Origin: a bacterium
Lineage (GTDB): Bacteria > CLD3 > SB21
DNA length: 64,000 nucleotides
NCBI GenBank assembly: GCA_013360215.1
Contig: JABWCP010000006.1
Coordinates: 104,470 to 168,469, forward strand
Direction of reading: 5' to 3'
The position numbers were made by a program, and so were the translations under genes. Positions 1,272-53,356 of this stretch are shown here, one piece after another (the stretch's first letter is position 1; every line of letters begins with the position of its first letter). The notes under the pieces are model-generated. The model was not told the origin of the DNA, did no database searches, and saw nothing but the letters and a program-made list of their open reading frames with translations.

Positions 1272-1288
1272 CTATTTTTTGGCGGCTC

Positions 1289-1843: not shown

Positions 1844-1888
1844 ATAGTAAAGCGGAGTTATGAATTTCGGAGGAGTGGAGGAGAGGTT

Positions 1889-2188
1889 ATGAGTCATGTA
1901 CATCATGGCGAGGCGGATCTGCATGCGCAGAACCATCCGATCAATTGCGGTGAAATTGAACGACTTTTGTATGCTTATTTAGATGGTGAATTGCCATTGG
2001 AAGAAGTCGCGCCTTACAAAGATCATCTATCGCATTGTCCGCCTTGCAAAGCATTCGTCGAATTTGAAGAAAAAATCAGCCATCTCATCAAACAAAAATG
2101 CGGTCACAACGGTACAGATCGCGCTTGCGTGCCGACATCGCTTCATGAAAAAATACAAAAGGCGATTGCATTGTCCAAAGAAGCTTGA
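1889..2188 (+). CDS. Zinc-binding anti-sigma factor (zf-HC2/ZAS, RsrA-like)
   Basis: C...YLDGEL...HLSHCPPC (HxxxCxxC) and KQKCG; strong SD; directly follows the ECF sigma. Confidence 0.9.
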   Translation: MSHVHHGEADLHAQNHPINCGEIERLLYAYLDGELPLEEVAPYKDHLSHCPPCKAFVEFEEKISHLIKQKCGHNGTDRACVPTSLHEKIQKAIALSKEA

Positions 2189-2243
2189 TGTGCGATAGGT
2201 TGATAATAAGAGAAAAAATATAACGGCTAACGATAATACTACT

Positions 2244-3875
2244 TTACCGCCAACCTTGAGCAATAGGTAATCGCCTCCCAAAGCCGAACGACTTAGAAGT
2301 TACGCGTAAACCCGGTGCAGCCTGCCTGCGTTTATATTCATTCCGATCAATAAGCTTGAGAATTTTATGAACCGTTTCCGGGTCGTGGCCAAGCTTTATA
2401 ATCTCATCGGCCTCTAAAAGATCTTCGATATAGGCTTTCAGAATGGCATCCAGTACGTCATAAGGCGGAAGCGAATCCTGATCGGTTTGATTGGGGCGCA
2501 ATTCGGCGGAAGGCGGTTTTTCGATGGTACTTTTAGGGATAACTATTTTATCGCGATTGATCCAATTTGAAATGCGATAAACCATCGTCTTGGGCACATC
2601 ACTGATCACGGCTAAACCGCCGCACATATCACCATAGATCGTGCAGTATCCGACAGCCAGTTCGGATTTGTTGCCGGTGCTAAGTACCATGGCGTTCAAT
2701 TTATTTGAAAACGCCATCAAGATGTTGCCGCGAATCCGGGCTTGGATGTTTTCTTCCGTCGTATCCTCGGGCAAACCTTGGAAACTACCGGATAAACTCT
2801 CTAAGAAACTATGGAACATGGGTTCGATAGGAACGCTATGATACGTGATGCCGAGATTCCGAGCCAGATCGCGAGCGTCATCTTGGCTGTGATCTGAGGA
2901 ATACCGGGACGGCATGGATACGCCGATCACATTCTGCGGGCCCAAGGCACTCGCGGTGATCGCAGCAACCAACGCCGAATCAATACCGCCGGACAATCCG
3001 ATCAAGGCTTTGCGAAATCCGCATTTGTGGAGATAATCCCGTACGCCGAGCACGAGGGCATTAAAAATTTCTTCTTCGGTTGTCGGATTGGGCATAGTGA
3101 TCGTTTGCGTTGAAGGAAGGGTGAGGGAAACCTGATCTTCTTCAAACGCCTTTCCGGCCGCGATTGGTATTCCTTCCGCATTGAGCGCAAAACTACGCCC
3201 GTCAAATATCAAGCTGTCATTGCCGCCGACAAGATTGACGAAAAGTATCGGTTTACGGTATTTAATAGCGATGCTGCGAAACATTTCCAAACGCAAATGA
3301 TGTTTTTGTACATGGAAAGGTGACGCGGAAATATTGATCAGTATTTCTGCACCTTGATTGAAAAGTTCTTCGATCGGGTCATTGTGATAGATGCGCCGCT
3401 TCCAAAAATCCTTGTCATTCCAGCTGTCTTCGCAAATGGAGATGCCGAGTTTGACACCGCGAAAAGTAAATATTTTTTTATGTTTTGCCGGTTCAAAATG
3501 ACGCATTTCGTCAAATACATCATAGTTGGGCAGCAGCGTTTTGTATTGTATGCCGATAATCTGGCGGTTTTCGATCAATGCCGCTGCGTTAAATACATGA
3601 TGACCTTCCGGATCATTATTGGGCGCGACAAAGCCGCACAAAACGCCGATGCCGTCGGTGGCTTCCCTGATCAGATCCAACATTTCCTGATTTTTTCGGA
3701 CAAAAGCTTTTTTTTCAACGAGATCTTCCGGAGGATAACCCGTAATACTCAATTCAGGAAATACGATCAGATCAGCGCCTTCGGAGCGCGCCTGACTGAT
3801 ATGTTGGATAATCCGTTCCGTATTATTGGTGAGATCGCCGACGCGGGTATTGATTTGAGCTAAAATGACTTTCAT
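2244..3875 (-). CDS. nadE: Glutamine-dependent NAD+ synthetase
   Basis: Nitrilase-like domain (FPEL, ICED) fused to synthase domain (GLSGGIDS, ENIQARIRG, TGNKSE, PPSAELRPNQTD). Confidence 0.96.
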   Translation of the reverse strand: MKVILAQINTRVGDLTNNTERIIQHISQARSEGADLIVFPELSITGYPPEDLVEKKAFVRKNQEMLDLIREATDGIGVLCGFVAPNNDPEGHHVFNAAALIENRQIIGIQYKTLLPNYDVFDEMRHFEPAKHKKIFTFRGVKLGISICEDSWNDKDFWKRRIYHNDPIEELFNQGAEILINISASPFHVQKHHLRLEMFRSIAIKYRKPILFVNLVGGNDSLIFDGRSFALNAEGIPIAAGKAFEEDQVSLTLPSTQTITMPNPTTEEEIFNALVLGVRDYLHKCGFRKALIGLSGGIDSALVAAITASALGPQNVIGVSMPSRYSSDHSQDDARDLARNLGITYHSVPIEPMFHSFLESLSGSFQGLPEDTTEENIQARIRGNILMAFSNKLNAMVLSTGNKSELAVGYCTIYGDMCGGLAVISDVPKTMVYRISNWINRDKIVIPKSTIEKPPSAELRPNQTDQDSLPPYDVLDAILKAYIEDLLEADEIIKLGHDPETVHKILKLIDRNEYKRRQAAPGLRVTSKSFGFGRRLPIAQGWR

Positions 3876-3909
3876 GTATTAACTATGATCGTTTAGGCTT
3901 ATCAATAAA

Positions 3910-4032
3910 AAAGGTCACTCGAAAATGCGTCCAGCTTGTCTGAAAAATAAGAATCTGTGTGGGTAATCTAAAATCGGCACAACAGATGCGTGATTCAGTA
4001 TGCTACAGATGACGCTTTTTGGAGCAACCTTT
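3910..4032 (-). ncRNA. Candidate structured RNA (long imperfect hairpin ending in a U-tract) upstream of nadE
   Basis: Minus-strand pairings: AAAGGUUGCUC/GAGUGACCUUU, AAAA-GCGUC/GACGC-UUUU, UAGC/GCUG, CUGAA/UUCAG, AUCUGU/ACAGAU, GUG/CAC. The G-U wobbles work only on the minus strand. Confidence 0.45.
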
Positions 4033-4054
4033 GTGTGAATTTCTTAATAGGTTA

Positions 4055-4468
4055 TCAATGGCGCAAAACTTCGAGAACTTTGCCGCCGACACGAAAAGAT
4101 TGATATTGCGGATCAACTTCGATCGGCGAAAGTTCGGCATTGGCCGGTTGTAAAATAATTTTACTTCCGCGTTTGTAAATACGTTTTACCGTAGCCTCTT
4201 CATTGACGTAGGCAATAACGATGTCACCATTGATAAATTCGTTAGTCTGACGGCATACGATGTAGTTTCCGTTAAAAATACCGTCTTCGATCATCGAGTC
4301 TCCAACAATCTGGAGTGCAAAAAGTTTTTTATCCTCCGGCGAATAACGGGAAGAAACAACATGGCCGAGTGAAACCTCCTCACTAAAGCGCGGTGTTCCG
4401 GCAGCTACTTTACCGACGACGGGAATGCCCGGGTTTTGCTGATTATCGTAAATAATCTTCGGCTCCAT
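4055..4468 (-). CDS. Stand-alone LexA-type S24 autopeptidase domain with no DNA-binding domain
   Basis: IPVVGKVAAGTP (Ala-Gly cleavage site), GDSM (catalytic Ser), ATVKR (catalytic Lys), LQPAN; 137 aa; SD GGGAG lies in the 3' end of glnE. Confidence 0.85.
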   Translation of the reverse strand: MEPKIIYDNQQNPGIPVVGKVAAGTPRFSEEVSLGHVVSSRYSPEDKKLFALQIVGDSMIEDGIFNGNYIVCRQTNEFINGDIVIAYVNEEATVKRIYKRGSKIILQPANAELSPIEVDPQYQSFRVGGKVLEVLRH

Positions 4469-9061: not shown

Positions 9062-9940
9062 ATGCCCAAAGTAATTTGTGTGGCCAACCCCAAAGGCGGC
9101 GTTGGGAAAACAACGACTTCTATCAATTTGGCGGCGTCGTTGGCCAAGTTTGGTAAACGTACGTTGCTTATTGACCTTGATCCGAGCGGCGCAGCGAGTG
9201 TCGGCGTCGGTTTTACGCGTGAAAATGCAACGTTTGGCGTGTACGATCTGTATAAACATCCCGAAAGTTTGGATGAAGCGATTGTAAGAAAGGCGATATA
9301 CGCCAGCGGTACCGAGCGTCTGGATGTGATGCCGTCCAATGTATGGACGAGCGAAGAAGAAAATGAACTTTTGAAACTCTCCGCAAAACTCACGCGGCTT
9401 CGCATTATGATTAATTTTGTCCGTAATGATTATGATTATTTTATCATCGATTGCCCACCTTTTCTCAGTAATCTGACATTGGGTGCATTTACGGCTTCGG
9501 ATTCGACCATCGTACCGGTTCAATGCGGTTTTTTTGCGTTGCATGCTTTGGAACGATTGATGAAGTTTTACCGTAAAGTGCGCGAATCCATTAATCCGTA
9601 TCTCAAGATCGAAGGCATTTTGATCACGATGTATGAAAAAGGGACGAATGTCAGCGTAAAAACCGTACGCGATGCACGAGCCGTTTTTGAAGATTTGGTT
9701 TTTGGAGTGATTATCCCTAAGAACGTAAAAATAGGGGACGCTGCATTTCAGAAAAAACCGGTTGTTACTTATGATTCTTCATCAGCCGGTGCGAAAGCGT
9801 ATATCCAACTTGCGGAGGTTATTTTACATAGAGATGACCCTCAATGGGATATTCAAGCGCATGTACAAACTCCGAATGAACCCCGTCAGGAACCCCAGAC
9901 GATCACGGACGCCGTATCATCCAGTGAAGAAAAGGCTTGA
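9062..9940 (+). CDS. Orphan ParA/Soj-family ATPase
   Basis: Deviant Walker A KGGVGKTT, IDLDP, IDCPP, IPKNVK; no parB adjacent. Confidence 0.9.
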   Translation: MPKVICVANPKGGVGKTTTSINLAASLAKFGKRTLLIDLDPSGAASVGVGFTRENATFGVYDLYKHPESLDEAIVRKAIYASGTERLDVMPSNVWTSEEENELLKLSAKLTRLRIMINFVRNDYDYFIIDCPPFLSNLTLGAFTASDSTIVPVQCGFFALHALERLMKFYRKVRESINPYLKIEGILITMYEKGTNVSVKTVRDARAVFEDLVFGVIIPKNVKIGDAAFQKKPVVTYDSSSAGAKAYIQLAEVILHRDDPQWDIQAHVQTPNEPRQEPQTITDAVSSSEEKA

Positions 9941-10041: not shown

Positions 10042-10641
10042 GTGATAGACACATTTTTGCCACGTGTTTTAGGAAAGATTATTTTAGCATCCGCTTCGCC
10101 GCGACGGGCACAGATATTAAAACAAGTCGGTTTTGATTTTGATGTGATGCCGAGTGCCATTGAAGAAGTTTCTGAACACCACGAACCGGTCGAGTATGCG
10201 CGCGAAATTGCTCAAAAAAAGGCCTTGGATATTGCTCAAAAATATCCCGAGCGAATTGTTATCGCGGCGGATACGATCGTGTGTTTGGACGGGCATATTT
10301 TAGGAAAACCGTCCGACGAGAAAGACGCATGGCGTATGCTGCGTTTTTTGAGCGGGCGTAATCATCAGGTATATACGGCATTTGCCATATCTCACCGGTC
10401 ACGCAATGTGAATAAGGTGGAACACGAATTAACACAGGTGCACTTTCGCCGGTTGCGGGATGAAGAAATCGCCATGTACATTGCCACCGGAGCGCCGTTT
10501 GATAAAGCCGGGGCTTACGGCATACAGGATGCCAGCGCTATTTTTGTAGATCGTATTGATGGTGATTTTTACAATGTGGTGGGATTACCTGTGACAAGGT
10601 TGTATCAGGTTTTGACGGACACGTATTTGGAAAAACGATGA
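10042..10641 (+). CDS. maf: Maf-family nucleoside triphosphate pyrophosphatase
   Basis: ILASASPRR, ADTIV, LGKP, DKAGAYGIQ, NVVGLP. Confidence 0.95.
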   Translation: MIDTFLPRVLGKIILASASPRRAQILKQVGFDFDVMPSAIEEVSEHHEPVEYAREIAQKKALDIAQKYPERIVIAADTIVCLDGHILGKPSDEKDAWRMLRFLSGRNHQVYTAFAISHRSRNVNKVEHELTQVHFRRLRDEEIAMYIATGAPFDKAGAYGIQDASAIFVDRIDGDFYNVVGLPVTRLYQVLTDTYLEKR

Positions 10642-11420
10642 GTAATGCATATTACAAAGAACTTTCCGGATGGTTGCGTCAGGCGCGTGCGGATCAGCAC
10701 ATAACGGCGGCGGCGGTTGCCTTGCGAACCCGAATGCCGTTAGAAACGATCGAAAAAATCGAAGCCGGCGATTTGGATTTTGCTACACCGGTATTCATAC
10801 AGGGATATCTTAAAAATTATGCGGACGCGATCGGCCTTGATTCGGCGGCTGTCGTGCGGGAATATAAAGTAATTCGTACTAAAATAGCGTATGTGACGTC
10901 GGACCGCGGGCAAGTAGTGGCACGTGCTACGGCGCAACACAGCGGAAATCCGGATGATCTTTCGTCTGAAATCATACCGTTTGATCCCGACTCCCATGCA
11001 TTTGCGCCGCACTCGGAGTTGGATCAGGCCGTTCGAAAAAAAATTTCAACTGAAAAATGGACGAATATCATCATGATGAGCTCTGCGGCTTGTATGGTGA
11101 TTCTTAGTTTGTACTGGGTCGTCTCTGATGATCATTCGCAGGACGAAGAGACAGCGGCCAATTTGGCCAAATACGAACGGAAAGCGGAAACATTTAAACA
11201 AGCTAAAATCGAACCGCGTAAAAGGTTGTCTTTTTACTTTTCCGAACCGATTCTAACGGACGAAGAAATCAACAGGAAATTGGAAGTCCGCGAACGAGAA
11301 CAACAGGACAGTATGCGTTTAGCGATATATCAAAAAAATCAAAAATGGCCGAGCGGCCAAAAAGTGCGTGCCATCACAGTACAAGAAGCCGCCTTGGATT
11401 ATGCTCAATCAATGAAATAA
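10638..11420 (+). CDS. RodZ-like HTH membrane protein
   Basis: N-terminal LRQAR...IEKIEAG...FIQGYLKNYADAIGLD (HTH_25-like) and one TM helix; ATGA overlap with maf. Confidence 0.7.
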   Translation: MSNAYYKELSGWLRQARADQHITAAAVALRTRMPLETIEKIEAGDLDFATPVFIQGYLKNYADAIGLDSAAVVREYKVIRTKIAYVTSDRGQVVARATAQHSGNPDDLSSEIIPFDPDSHAFAPHSELDQAVRKKISTEKWTNIIMMSSAACMVILSLYWVVSDDHSQDEETAANLAKYERKAETFKQAKIEPRKRLSFYFSEPILTDEEINRKLEVREREQQDSMRLAIYQKNQKWPSGQKVRAITVQEAALDYAQSMK

Positions 11421-11458: not shown

Positions 11459-13063
11459 ATGCTAAAGAAACTCAATGACATGAAACTACGAGCCAAACTC
11501 ATGGCGGGGTTCGGCGTTTTTTCAGCCATTTTTATAACTACCGTAACGATCGTTTTTACCGTCAAACTGCATACCACGGCGGTAAATCATCAGTCGCTGA
11601 TACTGCGCAGTTTTGCCGAATTGACTGCCAAAAACATCAGCGCGGGATTGGATTTTGGCGATAAGGGTTCCGTGGTCAGTGCGTTTGATGCGCTCAGAAC
11701 TCATGCCGAATTTATCATGGTGCACGACGTAAGCGGCGAAAACTTTGCTACCTTTTATCGCGATCCTAAGATAGAAGATCGGATTGATCCCGTGGTCAAC
11801 GAACAAATCGGTCGCTGGCGTGAAGCTAAAAAAAGCGATTGGACGTTTGATGCATTGGATATGAATTGTATCGTCGTGCCGGTATTTAACAGCGCCGGTA
11901 ATGAAATCGGGAATCTCTCATTGGGTATGTCAACGAAGTCCATTAATGATGAATTGCAATCCAATATTATTTTCAGTTTTATACTTCTTATAGTGACTGT
12001 CGGTGTGGGAATAGGTGTCGTGTATTGGATTAGCGGACTTTTGGTAAGGCCGTTGATGAATATTGTAGATCGGTTTAAGGACATCGCCGAAGGAGAAGGC
12101 GATTTAACGCGCCGGATACATATTGATGCCAAAGATGAAGTCGGTGAGTTGGCTGCCGCGTTTAACCAATTTTTGAATAAGTTAGAAGAAATCATGCGTC
12201 AAGTAGCGCGCACATCCGAGCAGATTTCGGCCTCGGTGGAGTCGATCAGCAAGGCCAGTTCCGACGTCGCCGGCGGTGCGGAACAACAATCCAATCAAGC
12301 CACGTTGGTGGCGGTTGCTGCCGAAGAGATGTCTGCTACGATCGTACAGACAACGGCCAATACCGGTGATGCGGTGCGACTATCCCAGCAGGCTGAAGAA
12401 GCTACCGACCGCGGAAAAATGGTTGTTGAGGATACGGTCAACGGGTTACAAAATATTTCTTCGGTGGTCAGTGAGTCGGCTCAGACATTACTGGAATTGG
12501 GTAAAACCGTCGCTCAGATCGGTACCGTGATCGAAGTTATCAACGACATTGCCGACCAAATCAACCTATTGTCACTCAATGCTTCGATCGAAGCCGCGAC
12601 AGCCGGTGATGCAGGAAAAGGTTTTGCCGTTGTCGCCAATGAAGTGAAAAACCTGGCGGAGGATACGACCCGTTCTACGACGGAAATATCTCAGATGATC
12701 GAAAAAATCCAACACGCTATGGCTAACGCGATTCGTGCGATGGAGCGCGGAACGATGGAAGTAGAAAAAGGACGTGCCTTGGGGCATAAAACGGCCGAGG
12801 CTTTTGACGAAATTTTGAAAGCCAGCGAACATGTTCGCGAAATGATAACGAATATTTCCGTTTCATCCCAGCAGCAGAGCCATTCGGCAGAAGAAATTTC
12901 CAGAAACATTGAAACCATTGCCGGTATTACACGCAACACGGCCCAAGGCGTGCGTCAAATAGATGGTACCACGGATGCTTTGGTCAACCATACGTCCGCA
13001 CTAAAGACCCTTGTCGGACGATTTAAACTGAATGAGCAAGATCGTGCACAAAATTACAACTAA
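11459..13063 (+). CDS. Methyl-accepting chemotaxis protein (two TM, periplasmic sensor, HAMP)
   Basis: GDLTRRI...DEVGEL HAMP; IADQINLLSLNASIEAATAGDAGKGFAVVANEVK. ATG 11459 follows SD GGGAG. Confidence 0.95.
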   Translation: MLKKLNDMKLRAKLMAGFGVFSAIFITTVTIVFTVKLHTTAVNHQSLILRSFAELTAKNISAGLDFGDKGSVVSAFDALRTHAEFIMVHDVSGENFATFYRDPKIEDRIDPVVNEQIGRWREAKKSDWTFDALDMNCIVVPVFNSAGNEIGNLSLGMSTKSINDELQSNIIFSFILLIVTVGVGIGVVYWISGLLVRPLMNIVDRFKDIAEGEGDLTRRIHIDAKDEVGELAAAFNQFLNKLEEIMRQVARTSEQISASVESISKASSDVAGGAEQQSNQATLVAVAAEEMSATIVQTTANTGDAVRLSQQAEEATDRGKMVVEDTVNGLQNISSVVSESAQTLLELGKTVAQIGTVIEVINDIADQINLLSLNASIEAATAGDAGKGFAVVANEVKNLAEDTTRSTTEISQMIEKIQHAMANAIRAMERGTMEVEKGRALGHKTAEAFDEILKASEHVREMITNISVSSQQQSHSAEEISRNIETIAGITRNTAQGVRQIDGTTDALVNHTSALKTLVGRFKLNEQDRAQNYN

Positions 13064-13841
13064 TACTCCGCGGAAAACGGTTTATGCAGACCTCATGCAG
13101 GTTTGCGAACAGCGCGGTTCGGGCTATTTTGTACTCATTGATCCCGACAAAAAAACGGAAGCGGAGACGTTGCAGACCGTGTCCCATTGCGCCGAAGCGG
13201 GTGTGGACGCGATTTTGATCGGGAGCAGCCTTATGCTTAGCAGCCGATTTGGCAGTACGATCCAGGCAATAAAAAAAGAATTTTCTTTGCCCGTTATTAT
13301 TTTTCCGGGTAGCACGATTCAGCTTTCCGAATACGCGGATGCGTTATTATTTTTATCCCTTATCAGCAGCCGCAATCCGGAGTTTTTGATAACCACTCAG
13401 GTGCTTGGGGCGCCGATTGTTCGCAAGATGGGATTGGAAGCCATTTCGACGGGATACATGCTTATCGAATCCGGTAAAGTAACGTCCGCTGAATTCATGA
13501 GTAATTCCAAACCCATACCACGAGACAAAAATGACATTGCTGTTGCTCATGCTTTAGCCGGCGAATACCTCGGCATGAAAACAATTTATCTCGAAGCCGG
13601 AAGCGGAGCGTTGCATTCTGTGCCGGCAGAAATGGTTTCTGCGGTCAGTGAGTATGTGAATATACCGGTGATCGTTGGCGGGGGTATTCGTACGCCCGAA
13701 GACGCCCTTCAAAAAGTAGAGGCCGGCGCTTCGTTTGTTGTGACCGGTAATGTGCTGGAACACTCCGGAAGCTTGTCATTGATTCGTGAATTTGCGAATG
13801 CAATACACTGGAAAACTCCGGCGGCTCAAAAACATGCGTGA
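13032..13841 (+). CDS. Geranylgeranylglyceryl phosphate synthase, group II
   Basis: VLIDPDK, DAILIGSS, LPVIIFPG, ADALLFLSLISSRNP, YLEAGSGA, VGGGIRT, VTGN. Confidence 0.92.
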   Translation: MSKIVHKITTNTPRKTVYADLMQVCEQRGSGYFVLIDPDKKTEAETLQTVSHCAEAGVDAILIGSSLMLSSRFGSTIQAIKKEFSLPVIIFPGSTIQLSEYADALLFLSLISSRNPEFLITTQVLGAPIVRKMGLEAISTGYMLIESGKVTSAEFMSNSKPIPRDKNDIAVAHALAGEYLGMKTIYLEAGSGALHSVPAEMVSAVSEYVNIPVIVGGGIRTPEDALQKVEAGASFVVTGNVLEHSGSLSLIREFANAIHWKTPAAQKHA

Positions 13842-14563
13842 GTAGTGTGGGCATACGACGGCGTGCATTGTTGGTGTTTGCCAAGTTACCCGAACCGGGT
13901 CAAGTAAAAACCCGATTGATACCAGCGCTTGGAAAAGACGGGGCCTGCAGTTTATATCAGGCTTTTTTGAAAGACAGCATTATTCAATATACCAGGCTTT
14001 CTTTAGAAGTGGGTTATACACCGTATTTATTTGTTACACCGTCGGAAGCGGTTCCGTTTTTTGAAAAATTTTGTGATACGCTAACTTCGGAAATTGGGAC
14101 GAACAACGCATGGCAAGTGCGATTGCAATCACAAGGGGATTTGGGCGCCCGTATGAAAGAAGCGTTCGCCGGGCTTTTTGCTCAAAACTATGATGCATGC
14201 TGGATTATCGGCACCGATCACCCGACGCTGCCGGACGCTTATGTGGTGGATGCGTTTCGTTACTTGGATCAATATGATGCCGTCATCGGCCCTGCCGACG
14301 ATGGCGGTTATTATGGTTTGGGATTGCAGCGAAGAATGGATTTTTTATTTGAAGATATACCTTGGAGCACGGAAGAAGTTTTGTCCACTACTCAACTACG
14401 GATGCAGAACAATGGGGTGAATTATTATCCGATCAAGCCGTGGTATGATGTGGATGAGCCGGCGGATATGTATCACCTCAAACGTGATTTAGACAAGGCC
14501 GGGATGCGATGTAATTATACGAAGCAATGGTTTGAACAACATGGGATGACATATGGCCGATAA
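13838..14563 (+). CDS. DUF2064/TIGR04282-type glycosyltransferase (usually rSAM/arsenosugar-associated)
   Basis: FAKLPEPGQVKTRL, QGDLGARM, IGTDHPTL, GPADDGGYY, WYDVD. Confidence 0.9.
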   Translation: MSSVGIRRRALLVFAKLPEPGQVKTRLIPALGKDGACSLYQAFLKDSIIQYTRLSLEVGYTPYLFVTPSEAVPFFEKFCDTLTSEIGTNNAWQVRLQSQGDLGARMKEAFAGLFAQNYDACWIIGTDHPTLPDAYVVDAFRYLDQYDAVIGPADDGGYYGLGLQRRMDFLFEDIPWSTEEVLSTTQLRMQNNGVNYYPIKPWYDVDEPADMYHLKRDLDKAGMRCNYTKQWFEQHGMTYGR

Positions 14564-15026
14564 ACAAAAAAATCTGAAATTCCTTCACTTTCGATCCGGC
14601 AACAGCGACTATGCCGTTGAACTGGAATACGTGAAAGAAATTATACGCAGCGTTGCCGTTTCTCCGATGAGCGAGCTGCCCCCGTTTGCGCCGGGCGTCA
14701 TCAATCTTCGAGGAGAAATCATACCAATTATTGATTTCCTTTTGCGTTCGGGTGCCGGTGCGACGACGTTGCGTCTGAAATCGCGCATCATCATTATGCG
14801 GATTCATGATATTACGGCCGGGCTGCTTGTCGATGACGTTTTGGAAACCCTTGAAGTCGAACCATCGGATATTACACGTAATTTGCACGCCGATGTCCTC
14901 ATTGACGTCAAATATATTCAGGGTACATTTTTGTCTGGCGGTACGACGATCGTTTGTGTGGATTTGAATAAATTGATGACGGACAAAGAATACGCTGTTT
15001 TACGTCACGAAGTCAAACATGCTTAA
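14553..15026 (+). CDS. cheW: Chemotaxis coupling protein
   Basis: VKEII...P...GVINLRGEIIPIID...GLLVDDV. Confidence 0.93.
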   Translation: MADKQKNLKFLHFRSGNSDYAVELEYVKEIIRSVAVSPMSELPPFAPGVINLRGEIIPIIDFLLRSGAGATTLRLKSRIIIMRIHDITAGLLVDDVLETLEVEPSDITRNLHADVLIDVKYIQGTFLSGGTTIVCVDLNKLMTDKEYAVLRHEVKHA

Positions 15027-16722
15027 TTACCACGAAGTACATCCGATGGGCACCGGGCATGGCGTTATTGCCAAAGAAGCCGATTTTACAGATCAGGATT
15101 TTATCCGGTTTCGTAATCTGATTCGCGCCCGCAGCGGTATTTATTTCAACGACCGCAAACGTGCCGATCTCAAAAGCGGAGTATTGAAAGCGTTTCACTA
15201 TTCCGGCGTTTCCGGTTTGGATAAGTATTTTGACTTGCTGGCGTCGGATCCGACACAGTCCGCGCAATTTAAGACGCTTGTTTCTTTTCTTACCGTCGGA
15301 GAAACGTATTTTTTCAGACATTTTGATGTAATTGAAAAAGTCGTTTTACCGAGCCTTATCAAAGCACATCATCACGATAAAACAATTCGTATATGGAGTG
15401 CCGGATGTTCTACCGGGGAAGAGCCGTATACCGTTGCGATGGTATTGCATAATCTGCTACCGGATATTCGGGACTGGAAAATTTCCATCGTAGGTACGGA
15501 TATCAATGTGAATTCCGTTGAATACGCCAAAGAGGGTGTTTACAGACCGTGGTCGTTGCGTTCGATCAACGATTTTTATAAAAATTTTTATTTCGATAAA
15601 AAAGACGGATTGTACTACATCAAAGATTTTATCCGAAACATGGTTCGCTTCGACTATCTCAATCTGGTGGACGACGGTTATCCGCGGGATGAAAACGGTA
15701 CCAAAGATTTAGATTTGATTTTTTGTCGTAATGTGACCATTTATTTTGAAGCCGAGACCACCATCAAAGTGGTTAACCGTTTTTATGATTGTTTGAAGGA
15801 GAAATCGTTTTTGGCCGTCGGTCATGCGGAGCCCAGTTCGTTAGTCTATGATAAGTATATTTCCGAAATATATCCCGATGCAGTGATTTACAGAAAAGAC
15901 ACGGCCTCAAAAAAGGAGCAGCAATACAAAACAGGTATTCGTACGCGTCGCGATATTTTTAAGGAATTCAAAGATCAAACCTCGGTCGTAAAAAATCAGG
16001 GTATCATAAATAATCTAGATACACTGCAACAGAGAATTACCAAACTCGATATTACCGATACTGTTAAAAAGGAAAACCCTGTTCTCAAATCAGAGCCCAA
16101 ACCAAAAGAACCACTCTTCAAAGCGGATAATCTCACAATTACGACCATGCGTGCACCGCTGAAACCGCAACCCGGCGCGAAACCGAATGATCGTGATGCG
16201 GTGATCGAAGAAAAACGGCGTGCCGAGCTCAACGAAGCGGAACTGTTTACAATGGCACTGGAAGAATTTTATAAAAAAGATTTTCGTGAAGCCGAAAAGC
16301 ACTTTACCGCACTGATCGAAAAAAATCCCGCGAACGGTAGAGCGCTGTATATGATCGCGCACATCAATGCCAATCTCGATAATGTCAGTAAAGCCAAAGA
16401 TTTTTGCCACATGGCGATCGCCGAAGATTCCCTGATGCTGGAAGCGTATTACCTGTTGGGATTGATTTACAAAGAAGAAAATCTTTTTGACGAATCGGTG
16501 CGCATGCTTAAGAAGACGATCTATATTGATTCTGATTTTGCGATCGGGTATTACGAGTTGGCGGTCAATTATTTTAAACTCGGTGACGGCGTGCAAGCGC
16601 GAAAATATTTAAAACAAACCGAGCGTATTTTAAAAAATAAATCGGACGACGAGCGCGTAGGGATTTTGGATGACTTGAAAGTCAAAGAACTGCGCATGAT
16701 GGTTAATATGTGGGATAATTAG
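15019..16722 (+). CDS. cheR: Chemotaxis methyltransferase with C-terminal TPR domain
   Basis: GETYFFR, WSAGCSTGEEPY, GTDIN, IFCRNVTIYF, GHAE; C-terminal TPR helices. Confidence 0.95.
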   Translation: MLNYHEVHPMGTGHGVIAKEADFTDQDFIRFRNLIRARSGIYFNDRKRADLKSGVLKAFHYSGVSGLDKYFDLLASDPTQSAQFKTLVSFLTVGETYFFRHFDVIEKVVLPSLIKAHHHDKTIRIWSAGCSTGEEPYTVAMVLHNLLPDIRDWKISIVGTDINVNSVEYAKEGVYRPWSLRSINDFYKNFYFDKKDGLYYIKDFIRNMVRFDYLNLVDDGYPRDENGTKDLDLIFCRNVTIYFEAETTIKVVNRFYDCLKEKSFLAVGHAEPSSLVYDKYISEIYPDAVIYRKDTASKKEQQYKTGIRTRRDIFKEFKDQTSVVKNQGIINNLDTLQQRITKLDITDTVKKENPVLKSEPKPKEPLFKADNLTITTMRAPLKPQPGAKPNDRDAVIEEKRRAELNEAELFTMALEEFYKKDFREAEKHFTALIEKNPANGRALYMIAHINANLDNVSKAKDFCHMAIAEDSLMLEAYYLLGLIYKEENLFDESVRMLKKTIYIDSDFAIGYYELAVNYFKLGDGVQARKYLKQTERILKNKSDDERVGILDDLKVKELRMMVNMWDN

Positions 16723-16732
16723 AGATAAACGT

Positions 16733-17335
16733 ATGGCGGAACCAATGAAGCAACAAGATGTATTTGACGAAGTACACAAGCTGATGGCGGAACTTTTGTC
16801 GTCACGCTTGACGCCGGAGGCTGAAGCTAAAATTTTGGCCGGCCGTGCCGAAAAACTAAAACGTGCACATACCATCGAAGAAACGGGCGAACAGATTAGT
16901 GTGCTTATTTTCCAGTTATCGTCTGAATTTTTTGCTTTAGAAACGCAGTATGTATCTGAAGTAAGGGTACTCAGCGAAGTGACGCCGGTTCCCTGTACGC
17001 CGGATTTTGTGCTCGGAATAACTAATATTCGCGGTGCCGTATTTTCGGTGATTGATATTCGCGGTTCATTCAATTTGGAAGACCGGCCTGTCACGGATCG
17101 ATCTATGTTTTTGATGATTCAGTGGAAAGGAATTGAGCTGTGCCTATTAGCCGACGCCGTGATTGAAAAAATCAATTTACCCCGTTCGGAAGTCAAGACG
17201 ATGACCGGCGGCAATAGAGAACACATGTCGTCATTTGTGAGCGGTTTTTTTATTCGCAATGATAATAAAATTACGTTGATCAGTTGGGATAACTATGTTT
17301 CACATTCGAATATAATTGTCAACGAAGAAGTCTAA
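16733..17335 (+). CDS. cheW: Chemotaxis coupling protein (WspD-like)
   Basis: ILAGRAEKL N-terminal extension; VTPVPCTPDFVLGITNIRG. Confidence 0.92.
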   Translation: MAEPMKQQDVFDEVHKLMAELLSSRLTPEAEAKILAGRAEKLKRAHTIEETGEQISVLIFQLSSEFFALETQYVSEVRVLSEVTPVPCTPDFVLGITNIRGAVFSVIDIRGSFNLEDRPVTDRSMFLMIQWKGIELCLLADAVIEKINLPRSEVKTMTGGNREHMSSFVSGFFIRNDNKITLISWDNYVSHSNIIVNEEV

Positions 17336-17353
17336 ACTCCGGAGAATCCATAT

Positions 17354-18580
17354 ATGATTTTTTTGTTTTTTTTACTCATGGCGATACCTGCTGCAGCCAT
17401 AGGCACTTTCGTTGTTTATATGGTTTACGGAAGAAAAAAATTTATCCTTAGCGTTTTGATACGCACCGTACCTTGGTTGGTGCTCATCGTATGTGCGTCC
17501 TTTTTCATCGGTATATATTCGATGCACTGGTGGGGCTGGGTTATTGGTCTGGGCGCGGCTGTAATTTTTGGCGTTATTTATTATCTGGTGCTATTCCGCA
17601 GTACTTTTACAGTTACAATGGATATCGTGGATGTCGTAACGCGTATCGCGGATAAAGATTATTCCAAACGTTTGACATTCAAGGCCGATGGGGAATTGAA
17701 TACCATGCGTGAAAGTCTCAACTCGGTCATCGATAATTTGGAGAATACGGAAAAAACTTTGGGCGATGCCGTATCGCGTTTGTCATCGGTTGTCAGTGAG
17801 CTTAACTCGACGATGGATCAACAGGTTGTGGGGATGAATGAGCAATCTACATCGCTCAATCAGACGACAACCACGACACAAGAATTGGCCGCCACTTCGC
17901 ATCAGACAACGGAAAAAGCTCAGTTTGTCGTAGAGAGTACCGAGCGCAGTATGGATATTACGTCCAAAGGCAAAGATGCGGTAGACAATACCGTGGATGA
18001 AATGAATGAAATCAAAAAGCGTGTTGAACGTATCGCGGAGCAAATCCTTGATCTCAGCGAAAAAACGCAACAGATCGGCGTTATCACCACCACCGTCAAT
18101 GATATTGCCGAACAAACCAATATGCTTGCGTTGAACGCGGCTATCGAAGCGAGTAAGGCCGGCGAATTCGGCAAAGGTTTCGGTGTGGTGGCTTTTGAAG
18201 TCCGGAAGCTAGCCGAAAAAAGCAAAGAGGCTTCTCTGCGCATACGTGATCTGATCACCCAGATACAAAATGCAACGAATTCGACGGTTATGGCTACGGA
18301 AGAAGGCTCAAAACGCGTTGATATCGGTGTTGAAAAAATACGAGAAGCCGGAAAATATATGGATGAATCCATCCAAAGTTTGGAAGAAAGCGTAGGTTAT
18401 GCCCAACAGATTTTGGTTGGCAGCAAACAACAGACGATCGGTATCGAACAGATCACGCTGGCCATGGCCAATATCAACGAAGTCGTCAAACAAGTTGCCA
18501 AAGGAACCGCGCAAACACAAGGCGCTGTGGATTCCGTGTTAGGTTTGACCAAAGAAATGGATAGTTTAGTCAAAAAATAA
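17354..18580 (+). CDS. Methyl-accepting chemotaxis protein with three N-terminal TM helices and no periplasmic domain
   Basis: [38 protein letters not shown]; hydrophobic segments confined to the first ~80 aa. Confidence 0.94.
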
Positions 18581-18619
18581 TCATTCATCATCCGGGCCAC
18601 ATATTTTACGGATTTGCCT

Positions 18620-21076
18620 ATGGATTTGTCTAAAGACGAACTCAAAGAAATGATGTCCATCTTCAAGGTGGAGAGCGAAGAGCATCTGAAAAACCTTAAT
18701 AAAGGTTTGCTCAAACTTGAAGAAACCCCCAATTCCCGAGAGCTGATAGATGAGCTTTTTCGTACGGCGCACAGCATCAAGGGTTCGGCGCGTATGATGG
18801 GTTTTCAGAAGATCGAAGGTGTATCGCACAAAATCGAAGATATTTTCGGTTTAGTACGCCGCGCGGAAATCAAAGTATCACCCGAAAATTTTGATGTCAT
18901 TTATGAAGGGGTTGATATTATTTCTCAAATTATCGAATTGATATCCAACGAAGGATCGGACGATTCAATCGATATTTCAGTTATTGTAAAAAAATTAGAA
19001 GCTATTTATAACCCGCAAGAAGCGCCGGCTTCCGTAGCCGAGCCAAAGGAAGAATCTAAACCTGATGTGGAACCGGTGTTGGACGTTGTGTCTAAAGCCG
19101 AACCGGTACCCGTGACGGAAGCGAAAACTCCTGAGCCGGAGGAGACCGAATTTAAACCGACGACCGATCTATCCAAGTCGGAGATGATCGTTGATAAAAC
19201 CGACGCTTCCAAAGGTAATGTTTCCGAAGATGCGTTTATACGTGTGCCGACGCGGCGTTTGGACGATCTGATGAATCAGGTGAGTGAACTTGTCACAACG
19301 CGCATCAAATCCCAGCAACGATTGGCGGACATCCGCAAAATGCTGGATTTTACCGAGGAGTGGGCACAACAAACGGAACGCATTCGATTACTGTTAGATC
19401 GTACTTTATCACGTATCGTCAACGAAGACGTCGAGAGACCAAGTGACGTAAAAAGCGAACTGATTACTTCATACGATCTGCGTTCCGTCGTTACTTCGTA
19501 TCTTTCATCCATTGAGAAAATAGGTTCGATTGCCGAATCTATTAGCATTTTGTATGACAAACAGAGTGAAGAAAATCTGCGGATGTCTGTCATCACAGGG
19601 GATATTCAAGACAATTTGCGCATTATTCGCCTTTTGCCGATTTCGACTATTTTCGATTTGTATCCGCGCATGATTCGTGATATTGCCAAATTACAAAGCA
19701 AAAAAGTGAAATTTGAAGTCTTCGGTGGAGATACGCGCGTTGATAAAAAAGTTTTAGAGGAGTTGAAAGATCCTCTGATTCACTTATTGCGTAATTCTAT
19801 TGATCATGGTATAGAAGCGCCGGCCGATCGCGAAGCCACTGGGAAAGCACAAGAAGGCACGATACAAGTTCGTGCCGGATACGTCGGCAATATGGTGCAG
19901 ATCGAAGTCCAGGATGATGGCCGTGGAATTGATACCGACAGGATTTTGCAGATCGCGATCAAAAAAGGTTATATCAAGGAACATCAAGCCTCCGAAGTCA
20001 GTAAAAATGATTTGGTCGGGCTTATTTTCCATTCCGGATTTTCTACGGCAAAAATTATCACCGATCTTTCCGGGCGCGGTGTGGGGCTTGACATCGTCAA
20101 ATCTAATATCGAAAAAATCAAAGGCACGATCGAAACGGTTTCTGAAAAAGGAAAAGGTACACGCTTTACGATCAAAATTCCGCTCACGCTCGCGACTACG
20201 CACGTGCTTATCGTGGATGTCGGCGGCGATCACTATTCGCTCCCGATTGATTTCATAGATCGTACGGTGCGATTAACGGAAGAAGAACTGTGGACGGGCG
20301 GGCAAAATCCTTTTGTCCTGGTGGATAATACGCCGGTGCCATTGTATAAAATGGAAGAGGTGTTGGGCAATGCCAAACAACGCCTCAAAAATAAAGGCTT
20401 GCTCAAGTCATCCGCTGCGCCCAAAATCGGGCAGCATCTTACAAAAATAGAGACGAATAAATTTCCCGCGGTTATTTTTGTTTCCGGAGGCCGGCGGGTA
20501 GCGTTTTTAGTGGATAAACTTTTAGACGAGCAGGAAGTTGTCGTTAAAAGCCTCGGTCATCAACTCAAACGCGTAAAAAATGTTGCGGGTTCAACCGTGC
20601 TTGGTGACGGACGGATTTCGATTATTTTAGATCCCAATGACTTGATCAAATCCGTTCAAGGTTCCGGTACGAAATTCGCTTTCCGGGATCGCCGTCAGCG
20701 CGATTTGGTCAAAAAGCGCGTATTGGTAGTGGACGATTCGATCACGACACGTACATTAGAAAAAAATATTCTTGAGTCCGCCGGTTATCACGTGACTATT
20801 GCGACTAACGGCTTGGAAGGTTATCAGAAACTGCATGAAATCGGTAATTTTGATATTGTCGTGAGCGATGTGGAAATGCCGTTTATGACGGGATTTGAAT
20901 TTGCTCACAAAGTGCGAACCGAGTCCAAATTTCCGGATATTCCGTTTGTATTGTGTACGTCACTGGAGTCGGATAAGGATAAACGCCGCGGGATCGAGGT
21001 CGGCGCTAATGCCTACATTGTCAAAGGTGGATTTGATCAGACCAATCTGCTTGAAACCATTGAAAAGTTGTTATAG
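18620..21076 (+). CDS. cheA: Hybrid CheA (Hpt-dimer-HATPase-CheW-REC)
   Basis: RTAHSIKGSA, HLLRNSIDHG, DDGRGID, SGRGVGLD; C-terminal REC VVDDS...SDVEMP. Confidence 0.96.
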   Translation: MDLSKDELKEMMSIFKVESEEHLKNLNKGLLKLEETPNSRELIDELFRTAHSIKGSARMMGFQKIEGVSHKIEDIFGLVRRAEIKVSPENFDVIYEGVDIISQIIELISNEGSDDSIDISVIVKKLEAIYNPQEAPASVAEPKEESKPDVEPVLDVVSKAEPVPVTEAKTPEPEETEFKPTTDLSKSEMIVDKTDASKGNVSEDAFIRVPTRRLDDLMNQVSELVTTRIKSQQRLADIRKMLDFTEEWAQQTERIRLLLDRTLSRIVNEDVERPSDVKSELITSYDLRSVVTSYLSSIEKIGSIAESISILYDKQSEENLRMSVITGDIQDNLRIIRLLPISTIFDLYPRMIRDIAKLQSKKVKFEVFGGDTRVDKKVLEELKDPLIHLLRNSIDHGIEAPADREATGKAQEGTIQVRAGYVGNMVQIEVQDDGRGIDTDRILQIAIKKGYIKEHQASEVSKNDLVGLIFHSGFSTAKIITDLSGRGVGLDIVKSNIEKIKGTIETVSEKGKGTRFTIKIPLTLATTHVLIVDVGGDHYSLPIDFIDRTVRLTEEELWTGGQNPFVLVDNTPVPLYKMEEVLGNAKQRLKNKGLLKSSAAPKIGQHLTKIETNKFPAVIFVSGGRRVAFLVDKLLDEQEVVVKSLGHQLKRVKNVAGSTVLGDGRISIILDPNDLIKSVQGSGTKFAFRDRRQRDLVKKRVLVVDDSITTRTLEKNILESAGYHVTIATNGLEGYQKLHEIGNFDIVVSDVEMPFMTGFEFAHKVRTESKFPDIPFVLCTSLESDKDKRRGIEVGANAYIVKGGFDQTNLLETIEKLL

Positions 21077-21082: not shown

Positions 21083-22255
21083 ATGCCCAAGATACTCATC
21101 GCTGAAGATTCGCCGACCGTCACGATGATTCTTCAGAAAATTTTTGCGACGGATGATGATTGCCAAGTGATCGGTGTGGCTAAAAACGGCCGGGAAGCGG
21201 TTGAAAAAGTCCAGATTCTCAGGCCGGATATAGTGACGATGGATATTCGTATGCCGGTTATGGACGGATTTGAAGCGACGAAACAGATCATGCAGACCGC
21301 GCCAACCCCAATTTTGGTGATTAGTGCATCTGTGGGTAAAGATGATCTCAATATTGCGTTTAATGCTATTCGTGCCGGAGCACTGGACATCGTCGAAAAA
21401 CCCAAAGGTAATCTGGCGATGGATTACGAATACATCGGGCGCGATTTGATCAAAAAAGTTAAGATCCTTTCCGGAGTCAAAGTATTTCATCATATCGGCG
21501 GCGCAAAAAACAAATCGTCGGACGCGAAATCTAGTGATAAAACCGACACATCATCTGTTCGCCAGCCGCGCGTGCCTGCCCCGGCTGCGGAAGTGCCGTC
21601 AGTCAAAGAAACACTCTGGCGCGAACCTTTAACGCCCAAGAGCGTATATCCGAAACTATTGAGTCCCGTAAAAACACCCGAGGTGATAGCTATCGCTTCA
21701 TCGACGGGCGGGCCATCGGCGTTACTCAAATTGCTCAAAACCCTCCCGGCAGGGTTTCCGGTTCCTGTAGTTATTGTCCAGCATATCTGTGAAGGATTCG
21801 GGCAAGGATTTGTCGAATGGCTCAATAAAGAGTGCGGTATGAATGTAAAAACGGCGGATCGCGGTGAAGAATTACAACCGGGAACGATTTATGTTGCCCC
21901 GGACGGATACCACCTTTTTATTGATTCAGGCAAAATCGTTCGTCTCAGCAAATCCATGCCAGTGAACGGTCTCCGCCCCAATGCAACCCTGATGATGGAA
22001 TCGGTTGCTAAAGTTTTTGGTGCAGCTTCGATCGGTATCGTTCTGACTGGCATGGGACGTGATGGCGCCGATGGAGCCAAAGCCATCAAAGAAGCCGGAG
22101 GTTTTACCATGGCACAAAATGCCGAATCTTGTGTTGTATTTGGTATGCCCAAAGAAACGATTGAGTTGGGTGTTGTAGATAAAATTTTACCCCCTGAAAA
22201 AATGACAGCCGAGCTGATGGCTTTTTTCAAATTATATCAAACGGCTAACGCGTAA
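21083..22255 (+). CDS. cheB: Chemotaxis methylesterase (REC-CheB)
   Basis: MDIRMP REC domain; ASSTGGP, VQHI, LTGMGRDGA catalytic triad. Confidence 0.96.
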   Translation: MPKILIAEDSPTVTMILQKIFATDDDCQVIGVAKNGREAVEKVQILRPDIVTMDIRMPVMDGFEATKQIMQTAPTPILVISASVGKDDLNIAFNAIRAGALDIVEKPKGNLAMDYEYIGRDLIKKVKILSGVKVFHHIGGAKNKSSDAKSSDKTDTSSVRQPRVPAPAAEVPSVKETLWREPLTPKSVYPKLLSPVKTPEVIAIASSTGGPSALLKLLKTLPAGFPVPVVIVQHICEGFGQGFVEWLNKECGMNVKTADRGEELQPGTIYVAPDGYHLFIDSGKIVRLSKSMPVNGLRPNATLMMESVAKVFGAASIGIVLTGMGRDGADGAKAIKEAGGFTMAQNAESCVVFGMPKETIELGVVDKILPPEKMTAELMAFFKLYQTANA

Positions 22256-22264: not shown

Positions 22265-23953
22265 GTGGCTAAAGAAAAAATATTGGTTGTAGATGACAGC
22301 GCGACGCAGCTCATCATGTATAAAATGGCGCTGAGCAAAGCGGGATATCTCGTCATCTCCGCCAAAAACGGCGTCGAAGGCATGCACATGGTGGAGACGG
22401 AAAATCCCGATCTGATCGTGAGTGACATCATCATGCCGGAACTCAACGGATATCAATTCTGCCGATTGGTCAAAGACGATCCTTCCCGTGCGCACATTCC
22501 GATTATTTTGCTCACAAGTCTCGGTCAGCAGCAGGATCGCTTCTGGGGTATTGAAGCCGGCGCCAACGCGTTTGTTACCAAAGCAACGGATACGACAGCG
22601 CTGCTGCAAGCGGTAGAGGAATTAATCAAAACGATCGCAAAGCCTTCAACCATAGATTATGCGGACAAAGAAGATGAAAAATATTCGATTCAATCGCCGG
22701 AGAACCCGGAAGAGAGTATCAAATCCAAACTGAATCGCATCTTAGAGAAACTTCTTTATGAGACGACGGTATCTAACCGAATGCGCGACTTGTCGCGGTA
22801 TGCTTACAATCGTCAGGAAATGATTACGCGCTGTTTTGATCTCTTTCGACAGATCGTCGAATATCATGCATCTGCACTCACGCTTTTTGAGAAAGACACG
22901 CTGCATTTGACGATTGATATTCAAAAAGACATCGCCGATAATTTTTTGGATAAAGCCATCGCATCGGTATTGCAGCAAGATTTTAATCCCAACGAAGTGC
23001 GTATGGGGCTTATCAAAAATACCCAGAAAGACATTTTTGGTGAAACCCACCTTAAGCCGGAAGGCGCACAAGACGTCCAATCCGTGCTGGTTGTGCCTTT
23101 ACGGGATGAAACGGATGTAGTCGGTTCCTTGGCTGTTTTTACATCGGATACTTTTGCGTACAACAAAGATATTTACCGACTCATTCAGCTGATCGCGCGT
23201 GAACTGACATTGACGATCAAATATATTTGGAAATTGGAAGAACTCGAAAATATCAAACGTAATTTTACATCGACGATCGTCAATGATCTGCGAAGCCCGA
23301 TCATCGCCAATCAGAGCTTTGCCGAAGCGCTGTTTAACGAATACGTCGATCCGATCACCGAAGATCAGAGAGAAATCCTGTCCAACGTCATTGCGAATAA
23401 TAAAAAATTACTGACGTTCATCAACGACATCATTGACATTTCGAAAATTGAATCCGGCAAACTGGAAATTTTCCCGGAACACAATAATGTGCATACGATC
23501 ATCGAAGACGCCATAAAAAACATGTCTGTTTTGGCTTCCCAAAAAGAAATTTTACTTATCAATGAATTTGAAAATACGGATTACAAGGCGTATTTTGACG
23601 GCGAAAAAATATTACAGGTATTCAATAACCTGATTTCCAATGCTATCAAATTTACCTCCACCGGCGGAGCAGTAATGATCGGAGCACAACCGGTGCCTGA
23701 TGGCGTACAGTTTATGGTTAAAGATACAGGAATCGGCATCCCTGAAGAAGACTTGCCGCATATCTTTGAAAAATACAAACGAACCGGCGGTGTGTTTTCC
23801 AGCGATGATCATGCCGGCGGCGGCGGTATCGGGTTGGGACTTGCCATTTGTAAATCCATCATCGAAGCGCATAAGGGCCGCATTTGGGCCGAAAGTGCGG
23901 TCGGTGAAGGTACCACATTTTATTTCACCGTATTAACACCGGAACAATCATAA
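22265..23953 (+). CDS. REC-GAF-like-HisKA-HATPase hybrid; phosphoacceptor His replaced by Asn (pseudokinase)
   Basis: REC intact (VDDS, SDIIMP, LTS, K). H-box reads IVNDLRSP. N, G1, F and G2 boxes intact (NLISNAIKF, DTGIGI, IFEKY, GLGLAI). Confidence 0.88.
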   Translation: MAKEKILVVDDSATQLIMYKMALSKAGYLVISAKNGVEGMHMVETENPDLIVSDIIMPELNGYQFCRLVKDDPSRAHIPIILLTSLGQQQDRFWGIEAGANAFVTKATDTTALLQAVEELIKTIAKPSTIDYADKEDEKYSIQSPENPEESIKSKLNRILEKLLYETTVSNRMRDLSRYAYNRQEMITRCFDLFRQIVEYHASALTLFEKDTLHLTIDIQKDIADNFLDKAIASVLQQDFNPNEVRMGLIKNTQKDIFGETHLKPEGAQDVQSVLVVPLRDETDVVGSLAVFTSDTFAYNKDIYRLIQLIARELTLTIKYIWKLEELENIKRNFTSTIVNDLRSPIIANQSFAEALFNEYVDPITEDQREILSNVIANNKKLLTFINDIIDISKIESGKLEIFPEHNNVHTIIEDAIKNMSVLASQKEILLINEFENTDYKAYFDGEKILQVFNNLISNAIKFTSTGGAVMIGAQPVPDGVQFMVKDTGIGIPEEDLPHIFEKYKRTGGVFSSDDHAGGGGIGLGLAICKSIIEAHKGRIWAESAVGEGTTFYFTVLTPEQS

Positions 23954-53351: not shown

Positions 53352-53356
53352 AATTT

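Follow-up and report, generated by a model that had tools for sequence, protein, structure and literature searches.

A geranylgeranylglyceryl phosphate synthase gene retained within a Wsp-like chemosensory operon in an order of uncultured FCB-related bacteria

The locus and its genes

In an order belonging to a small uncultured phylum related to the FCB group, known from activated-sludge metagenomes, the gene encoding geranylgeranylglyceryl phosphate synthase (GGGPS), the enzyme with which archaeal-type ether lipid formation begins, lies inside a cluster of chemosensory (che) genes. The stretch of DNA analysed here, called the window, comprises 64,000 nucleotides (nt) of assembly GCA_013360215.1 (genome G000, contig C36, positions 104470-168469), and positions given below are those of the window unless another contig is named. 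This assembly measures 3.72 Mb in 56 contigs, with a marker-gene completeness of 100%, and DNA near-identical to the window was found in activated-sludge metagenome runs from nine studies. The phylum is represented by 20 genomes in our collection, 18 of which, the window genome included, form the order under study, the other two being class-level relatives; the 17 other genomes of the order comprise 14 of the same family and three of a second family.

The core of the locus is formed by four genes on the forward strand. The first encodes a methyl-accepting chemotaxis protein in the position of WspA (MCP1, 11459-13063; PF00015 156 bits, PF00672 (HAMP) 49 bits), and is followed by a group II GGGPS of the PcrB family (13032-13841), by a DUF2064/TIGR04282 protein resembling nucleotide-diphospho-sugar transferases (13838-14563; TIGR04282 181.2 bits against a cut-off of 134, PF09837 105.4 bits, and 95.5 bits to the PDB structure 3cgx) and by CheW1, in the position of WspB (14553-15026; PF01584 97 bits). 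Successive genes overlap by 32 nt (MCP1/GGGPS), 4 nt (GGGPS/DUF2064) and 11 nt (DUF2064/CheW1). These identities, their order and the overlapping junctions had been described in an earlier note made from the sequence alone, and they are confirmed here, the families all scoring above curated cut-offs.

Downstream of this core the same strand carries a CheR methyltransferase with a C-terminal TPR domain, in the position of WspC (15019-16722; PF01739 176 bits plus TPR families), CheW2, in the position of WspD (16733-17335; PF01584 79 bits), a second chemoreceptor, MCP2 (17354-18580; PF00015 133.8 bits), a CheA-REC hybrid kinase in the position of WspE, with Hpt, H-kinase_dim, HATPase_c, CheW and Response_reg domains (18614-21076), and a CheB methylesterase in the position of WspF (21083-22255; PF01339 213.7 bits plus REC). 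The gene after CheB, where WspR would be expected, encodes by its domain matches a REC-GAF-HisKA-HATPase hybrid, the putative output of the system (22265-23953). The earlier note had called the system Wsp-type, which holds for gene order and domains and fails for the output, since no REC-GGDEF protein of the WspR type is present in the operon. The genome contains seven GGDEF genes, five of them with REC, and none lies inside the che operon.

A conserved soluble protein of 252 amino acids (aa) with no Pfam or NCBIfam match (23957-24715; 62-72% identity) and a membrane protein of the DUF2752 family, in which a CPSCG motif occurs (24712-25179; PF10825 53.6 bits), follow, the latter being the last gene of a conserved block; both are collinear in all five order genomes used for the wide synteny comparison, which covered 20 kb on either side. 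The block begins, again on the forward strand, with a Maf nucleotide pyrophosphatase (10042-10641; PF02545 217.7 bits), collinear in 5/5 of these genomes, and a RodZ-like HTH_25 membrane protein with one transmembrane segment (10638-11420; PF13413 57.8 bits), present in 4/5 with 28-34% identity.

The longest open reading frame (ORF) of MCP1 opens at 11345; the ATG at 11459 has GGGAGA upstream, and the MCP of a relative (locus L039) aligns from residue 1 of the product of this start. MCP1, whose identity to its counterparts in relatives is 52-64%, is predicted to have two transmembrane segments, a periplasmic domain of about 125 aa, a HAMP domain and the MCP signalling domain, with a weak match to CHASE8 that falls under the cut-off. 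For MCP2, three to four transmembrane segments are predicted in the first 88 residues and no sizeable periplasmic domain, a topology that suggests a receptor sensing inside the membrane.

The GGGPS enzyme

The GGGPS gene is the sole PcrB match in the genome. Its product scores above the cut-offs of the curated models NF003198 (297.7 bits, cut-off 247), TIGR01769 (222 bits, cut-off 161.55) and PF01884 (160.3 bits, cut-off 23.9), whereas models of the group I type score it far lower (TIGR04146 42 bits, TIGR04147 34 bits and the HepGP synthase model NF003197 30 bits). Among solved structures the product scores best against two group II enzymes, with 180 bits to that of F. johnsoniae (4jej) and 197 bits, over residues 32-254, to that of M. 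thermautotrophicus (4mm1). F155, within SAEFMSNSKPIP, pairs with W141 of 4mm1 when the two are aligned by phmmer, and in an alignment of 11 FCB sequences (A1), which has 51 invariant columns, this position is F or Y in all 11. According to the accessible portion of PMC7888582, an aromatic anchor at W141 (Trp, Phe or Tyr) is a hallmark of hexamers. Judged from its sequence, therefore, the protein genuinely belongs to group II and carries an aromatic residue at the hexamer anchor, as the earlier note had read it, and it would be expected to be hexameric and catalytically active. Translation must start at ATG 13032 or GTG 13044; a start at the next in-frame ATG, 13095, is untenable because the conserved Y..LL segment of alignment A1 would be lost.

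Other steps of the archaeal-type lipid pathway

The window holds no digeranylgeranylglyceryl phosphate (DGGGP) synthase, as had been pointed out previously, and the candidate lies instead on contig C28. The genome has six UbiA-family genes, one of which (C28:131885-132727) is best matched by the models of DGGGP synthase (DGGGPS), NF009521 and NF009523, both with 192 bits, under their respective cut-offs of 296 and 269. This UbiA is 32% identical to a UbiA encoded next to GGGPS in Cloacimonadota, and was found in 18/20 genomes of the phylum, the two genomes without it being 91% and 85% complete. Thus, the genome-wide search for the remaining enzymes proposed in the earlier note yielded a DGGGPS-like gene below the model cut-offs, and neither a glycerol-1-phosphate dehydrogenase (EgsA/AraM) nor CarS was found in the genome. 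PF13685 gave only 26.7 and 21 bits, under the cut-off, and these two weak matches were discarded as glycerol-1-phosphate dehydrogenases, the ORFs being AroB and a PsrA-like Fe-ADH. There was no match in the genome to PF01864 (CarS), nor to PF22578, the catalytic domain of geranylgeranyl reductase.

The region C28:129772-134512 carries rimM-trmD-rplS, then the DGGGPS-like UbiA, a 108-aa protein without family, an SDR and a REC-GGDEF protein, the last of these highly conserved (73-82% identity in relatives). The UbiA block is kept in 6/7 order genomes examined, whereas neither G017 nor G019, a class-level relative, has kept it. As the missing WspR, the REC-GGDEF gene two genes past the UbiA was considered and rejected, its adjacency not being distinctive when 5/7 of the GGDEF proteins of the genome carry REC.

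Conservation of the linkage between GGGPS and the che genes

Forty genomes of relatives were searched for GGGPS, which was found in all 19 other genomes of the phylum. In 17/17 other genomes of the order (18/18 with the window genome) it has MCP1 upstream and CheW1-CheR downstream. The distance from a stop codon to the next conserved match never exceeds 80 nt for MCP1-GGGPS, 24 nt for GGGPS-DUF2064 and 8 nt for DUF2064-CheW1. From Maf to DUF2752 the gene order is the same in the five genomes of the comparison, while the flanks of this block are rearranged: synteny stops right past 25179 in 5/5, and upstream of the block GlnE and a carboxyltransferase are missing in the second family. A gene for a ParA/MinD-like ATPase (9062-9940) has no counterpart at this place in the five relatives compared, and has the appearance of an insertion between Maf and the gene for the carboxyltransferase. 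Within the block, GGGPS is the most conserved protein, with 73-77% identity among the five genomes, against 41-54% for CheW1. The linkage is thus specific to this lineage and is not a chance juxtaposition within the order, the latter being the outcome that, according to the earlier note, would have refuted its reading.

Outside the order the picture is different. CheR-TPR was found in 18/20 genomes of the phylum and gave no match in the two class-level relatives, although both contain GGGPS. At E<=1e-30, CheR-TPR was not found in G018, G019, G023 and G034, and the only CheR of G038, with 320 aa, has no TPR. An ancestral che operon without GGGPS was not located in the collection, in which the phylum has only 20 genomes.

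For comparison, 80 GGGPS loci from public FCB genomes were inspected for che and DUF2064 genes within 5 kb. The only one with a che context is L039, identical in the GGGPS tree to G013, a genome of our own set; at the 79 other loci neither MCP, CheW, CheR nor DUF2064 was found within that distance. Neighbours were counted at the 75 loci with a callable GGGPS ORF (L040, L067, L068, L104 and L115 being left out). Within two ORFs of GGGPS lies a SIS_2 gene at 38/75 loci and alaS at 32/75, and the neighbours limited to particular lineages are a geranylgeranyl reductase gene (7 loci), CpsB (5), UbiA (4) and gcvPA (4), the arrangement gcvPA-GGGPS being present at the loci from Marinimicrobia. The SIS_2 protein has about 195-201 aa, and its gene lies after GGGPS, in many cases with a start codon that overlaps the stop of GGGPS; alaS precedes GGGPS. 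This alaS-GGGPS-SIS order is widespread in FCB genomes; the window genome has the three genes on different contigs. Since the position of GGGPS differs between FCB lineages, usually beside housekeeping genes, it is probably a poor guide to function.

In the GGGPS tree, of 99 rows (L059, L063, L083, L085, L090 and L114 being left out for stops in the match), the order forms a clade (support 99). The backbone is not resolved (support 62), and vertical descent and transfer are not separable relative to the class-level relatives.

DUF2064 and the arsenic genes

The DUF2064 gene behaves differently from its neighbour. It occupies the locus in 13/17 relatives of the order and is missing in G003, G015, G016 and G017, in which the order GGGPS-CheW1 is intact and the nearest start codon that CheW1 could use lies only 31-75 nt past GGGPS. 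A genome-wide family search for TIGR04282 found no match anywhere in these four genomes. The radical-SAM protein ArsS (TIGR04167) and TIGR04282 score above cut-off in the same 14/18 genomes of the order, and neither does in the four mentioned. Similarly, among five genomes checked for TIGR04283, it was found above cut-off in G008 and not in G003, G015, G016 and G017. The genome of the window has two TIGR04283 genes, on contigs C45 and C28. DUF2064, ArsS and TIGR04283 sit at separate loci, so that several deletions were needed for all three to be absent. The absence may nevertheless go back to only one or two events, since the GGGPS tree unites G003 and the second family, together with the window genome and G001, in one group of six rows (SH-aLRT 85).

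ArsS is encoded about 38 kb downstream of the DUF2064 gene of the che operon, in an arsenic cluster on the reverse strand (49986-53776). This cluster comprises genes for an ArsM-like methyltransferase (49986-51176; NF040538 361 bits, under the cut-off of 500), a Pit-like transporter (51181-52296), ArsS itself (52335-53351; TIGR04167 427 bits, cut-off 300) and an AhpD-like TIGR04169 protein (53357-53776; 159.9 bits, cut-off 120), all of them likely functional partners of DUF2064. Next to the cluster lies a 388-aa ORF (53789-54955) with no NCBIfam match. ArsS has been characterised biochemically, as indicated by its citation (ref. 61) in the accessible portion of PMC12159101.

Among 100 longer homologues of DUF2064, a family 2 glycosyltransferase (GT2) domain (PF00535) is present in 94 and PcrB (PF01884) in none; several of the GT2-fused homologues are named 'rSAM/selenodomain-associated transferase 2/1'. 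DUF2064 adjoins ArsS in G025 and G026, and is present without GGGPS in G022, G025 and G026. ArsS of G026 (C18:4223-5729), directly beside the TIGR04282 gene, gives two separate matches of 207.7 and 171.7 bits, the former containing a TAA, and may be a broken gene.

Taking into account the co-occurrence with ArsS, the GT2 fusions (94/100) and the absence of PcrB fusions (0/100), DUF2064 is assigned, on comparative sequence grounds, to the ArsS/TIGR04283 arsenosugar gene set and not to GGGPS. This is the clearer result of the analysis, and a negative one: the lipid-modification module of GGGPS and DUF2064 proposed in the earlier note is not supported by the comparison. The biochemical role of DUF2064 would follow from its gene context and from the NCBIfam name of TIGR04282, 'arsenosugar biosynthesis glycosyltransferase', an entry of the type 'hypoth_equivalog'; in the literature searched, no experimental paper was found on DUF2064, nor on arsenosugar, ArsS and glycosyltransferase together.

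Evidence for transcription

Contigs assembled from RNA libraries of three studies (four runs, in which DNA carry-over is possible) bridge three of the four junctions examined: MCP1/GGGPS (X20, 12965-13200), GGGPS/DUF2064 (X17, 13734-13925; X20, 13703-13892) and CheW1/CheR (X18, 14947-15264). The junction DUF2064/CheW1 is not bridged among the contigs listed. No RNA contig of the four runs covers 14074-14364 and most of 15529-18147, which, these being contigs, proves nothing. A joint of 'opposite strands' at 13325/13381, in contig X19 from a miRNA-seq library, looks like a library artefact and was set aside. The RNA contigs are thus a weak hint of expression and co-transcription.

The search for promoters and terminators was uninformative for this phylum. 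Promoter-like sites numbered 21, below the mean of 29.2 obtained with shuffles, with a consensus that may not fit the phylum, and terminator-like sites were slightly commoner (29 against 19.7, standard deviation 4.6), with weak stems. Two sigma-70-like matches on the forward strand, at 14490-14518 and 14546-14573, lie just 5' of CheW1.

Other features of the window

Elsewhere in the window, the region 1214-4468 encodes an ECF-type sigma factor, a glutamine-dependent NAD synthase and an S24 (LexA-like) peptidase, a block collinear in 5/5 relatives. A protein with a C-terminal sorting domain of the type IX secretion system (TIGR04183, 32.6 bits) is encoded at 27028-28320, and an ORF of 1597 aa extends over 31533-36326.

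Interpretation of the locus

The reading that we consider probable, with modest confidence, is that of an order-specific operon architecture in which GGGPS is co-transcribed with the che genes by virtue of its position, with no demonstrated mechanism of lipid signalling. Thus, an ancestor of the order would have placed its single GGGPS, of the FCB type, in a Wsp-like operon, after MCP1 and before the first CheW, and the gene stayed there. The protein would be a normal FCB-type enzyme, most likely making geranylgeranylglyceryl phosphate, and the DGGGPS-like UbiA of contig C28 could extend this product. GGGPS is probably co-transcribed and translationally coupled with the che genes, and the link would be positional, that is, a matter of shared promoter and operon inertia. 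DUF2064 would be a separate, facultative passenger, working with ArsS and the GT2 transferase TIGR04283 in a chemistry of the arsenosugar type.

Several points weigh against this interpretation. In two families, with at least 11 genera, GGGPS has been kept in the operon while the flanks decayed, which could reflect selection for co-expression, inertia and function not being separated by these data. Unless there is an internal promoter, the only GGGPS of the cell depends on a che operon, an odd place for a housekeeping enzyme. The RNA contigs may contain carried-over DNA. As for DUF2064, its tie to ArsS is not universal, since outside the order 3/5 carriers of TIGR04282 (G019, G022 and G034) lack ArsS above cut-off; the joint absence of DUF2064 and ArsS within the order may trace back to only one or two evolutionary events; and in the 14 order genomes that have it, DUF2064 is always at the che locus and never beside ArsS, which a positional reading leaves unexplained.

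A functional coupling, in which the Wsp-like pathway would follow membrane composition or depend on it, perhaps through the multi-TM MCP2 or through MCP1, and GGGPS would be retained so that the ether lipid matches the receptor array, has to be weighed first, and we regard it as unlikely without being far-fetched. The arrangement persists in 18/18 genomes of the order in spite of rearranged flanks, its junctions are probably translationally coupled, GGGPS is both single-copy and the most conserved protein of the block, and the sensing end of MCP2 is almost wholly embedded in the membrane. Furthermore, surface sensing and envelope stress are reportedly connected by the Wsp system of P. aeruginosa (PMC9170161), and according to PMC7888582 the products of bacterial GGGPS have no known function. 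However, the arrangement has no independent second occurrence at the 79 other FCB loci, where other lineages hold GGGPS in unrelated operons, which makes its position a poor functional guide; the gene lies upstream in a sensor operon and not under an identifiable output; and GGGPS also occurs in the two class-level relatives, which do not have this che operon. It is also conceivable that GGGPS and the che genes are driven apart by internal promoters in MCP1 or DUF2064, their adjacency having no regulatory meaning. The sigma-70-like matches just before CheW1 and the DUF2064/CheW1 junction, unbridged among the contigs listed, fit such separate transcripts, but promoter-like matches stay under the shuffled mean (with the reservation on the consensus given above), in 18/18 genomes the successive genes either overlap or lie within 80 nt of one another, and RNA contigs bridge the other three junctions, so that we judge this explanation improbable.

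Still less credit, by a small measure, is given to the proposal that GGGPS and DUF2064 form one pathway to a glycosylated or arsenosugar-bearing isoprenoid glycerol ether, co-regulated with or sensed by the chemosensory system. Arsenosugars are glycerol-linked, and phytyl arsenosugar lipids have been described in algae; the two genes overlap by 4 nt and are adjacent in 14/14 genomes of the order with DUF2064, and the genome also contains ArsS, TIGR04283 and an ArsM-like gene. Against it, DUF2064 is dispensable, 4/17 relatives bringing GGGPS to within 31-75 nt of the CheW start in its absence, it tracks ArsS, and it exists without GGGPS in three genomes; of its 100 longer homologues 94 carry GT2 and none PcrB, and it stands beside GGGPS at none of the 79 other FCB loci.

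A broader idea, rather doubtful in our opinion, is that the Wsp-like pathway and an isoprenoid ether lipid constitute one functional unit in this phylum, the output of GGGPS tuning the membrane around the membrane-embedded receptors or being read by them, and DUF2064 perhaps also decorating a lipid derived from geranylgeranylglyceryl phosphate in the members that possess ArsS. If true, this would be the first physiological role for a bacterial GGGPS, and would tie archaeal-type lipids to envelope signalling; as the accessible text of PMC7888582 puts it, the biological function of bacterial ether lipids is still unknown. In the literature searched, no paper linking GGGPS to a chemotaxis operon was found, the related papers listed being archaeal, and the words 'chemotaxis' and 'operon' do not occur in the accessible portion of PMC7852524. 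The tie of the only GGGPS to a Wsp-like operon across a whole order thus offers a concrete, testable hypothesis and a named lineage, while the comparative evidence, with a GGGPS position that varies between FCB lineages, calls for caution.

Comparison with known systems

As an enzyme, the GGGPS of the window belongs to the same family as the group II enzymes of FCB bacteria, such as those of F. johnsoniae (4JEJ, its match at 180 bits) and Ca. Cloacimonetes (Villanueva et al. 2020, PMC7852524). According to that paper, the metagenome-assembled genomes of Ca. Cloacimonetes have a comparable partial set, with GGGPS and DGGGPS present and CarS and egsA/araM absent; in the window genome the place of DGGGPS is taken by the candidate, DGGGPS-like UbiA. 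The hexameric archaeal enzyme of M. thermautotrophicus (4MM1) is closer in score, and its W141 aligns with F155; however, the host of the window is a bacterium. Dimeric enzymes of Flavobacteriales have Arg at the anchor, as described in the available part of PMC7888582, whereas the protein of the window has Phe. In contrast to the GGGPS genes of other FCB bacteria, that of the window lies inside a che operon and is not beside UbiA, as at 4/75 loci, or between alaS and SIS. A precedent for a PcrB-family gene co-transcribed with functionally unrelated genes is the pcrB-pcrA pair of B. subtilis, which involves a group I heptaprenyl enzyme in a different operon.

With regard to arsenosugar biosynthesis, the set TIGR04282/TIGR04283/TIGR04167, the last represented by ArsS of Synechocystis, is complete above cut-off in the window genome, although its genes are dispersed there and adjacent or fused in other organisms.

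The chemosensory genes share with the Wsp system of Pseudomonas (WspA-F) the order and domains of MCP, CheW, CheR-TPR, CheW, CheA-REC and CheB. They differ from it in the insertion of GGGPS and DUF2064 after the first MCP, in a second, membrane-embedded MCP before CheA, in an output of the type REC-GAF-HisKA-HATPase instead of REC-GGDEF, and in the genes for the 252-aa protein without family and for DUF2752 that follow this output.

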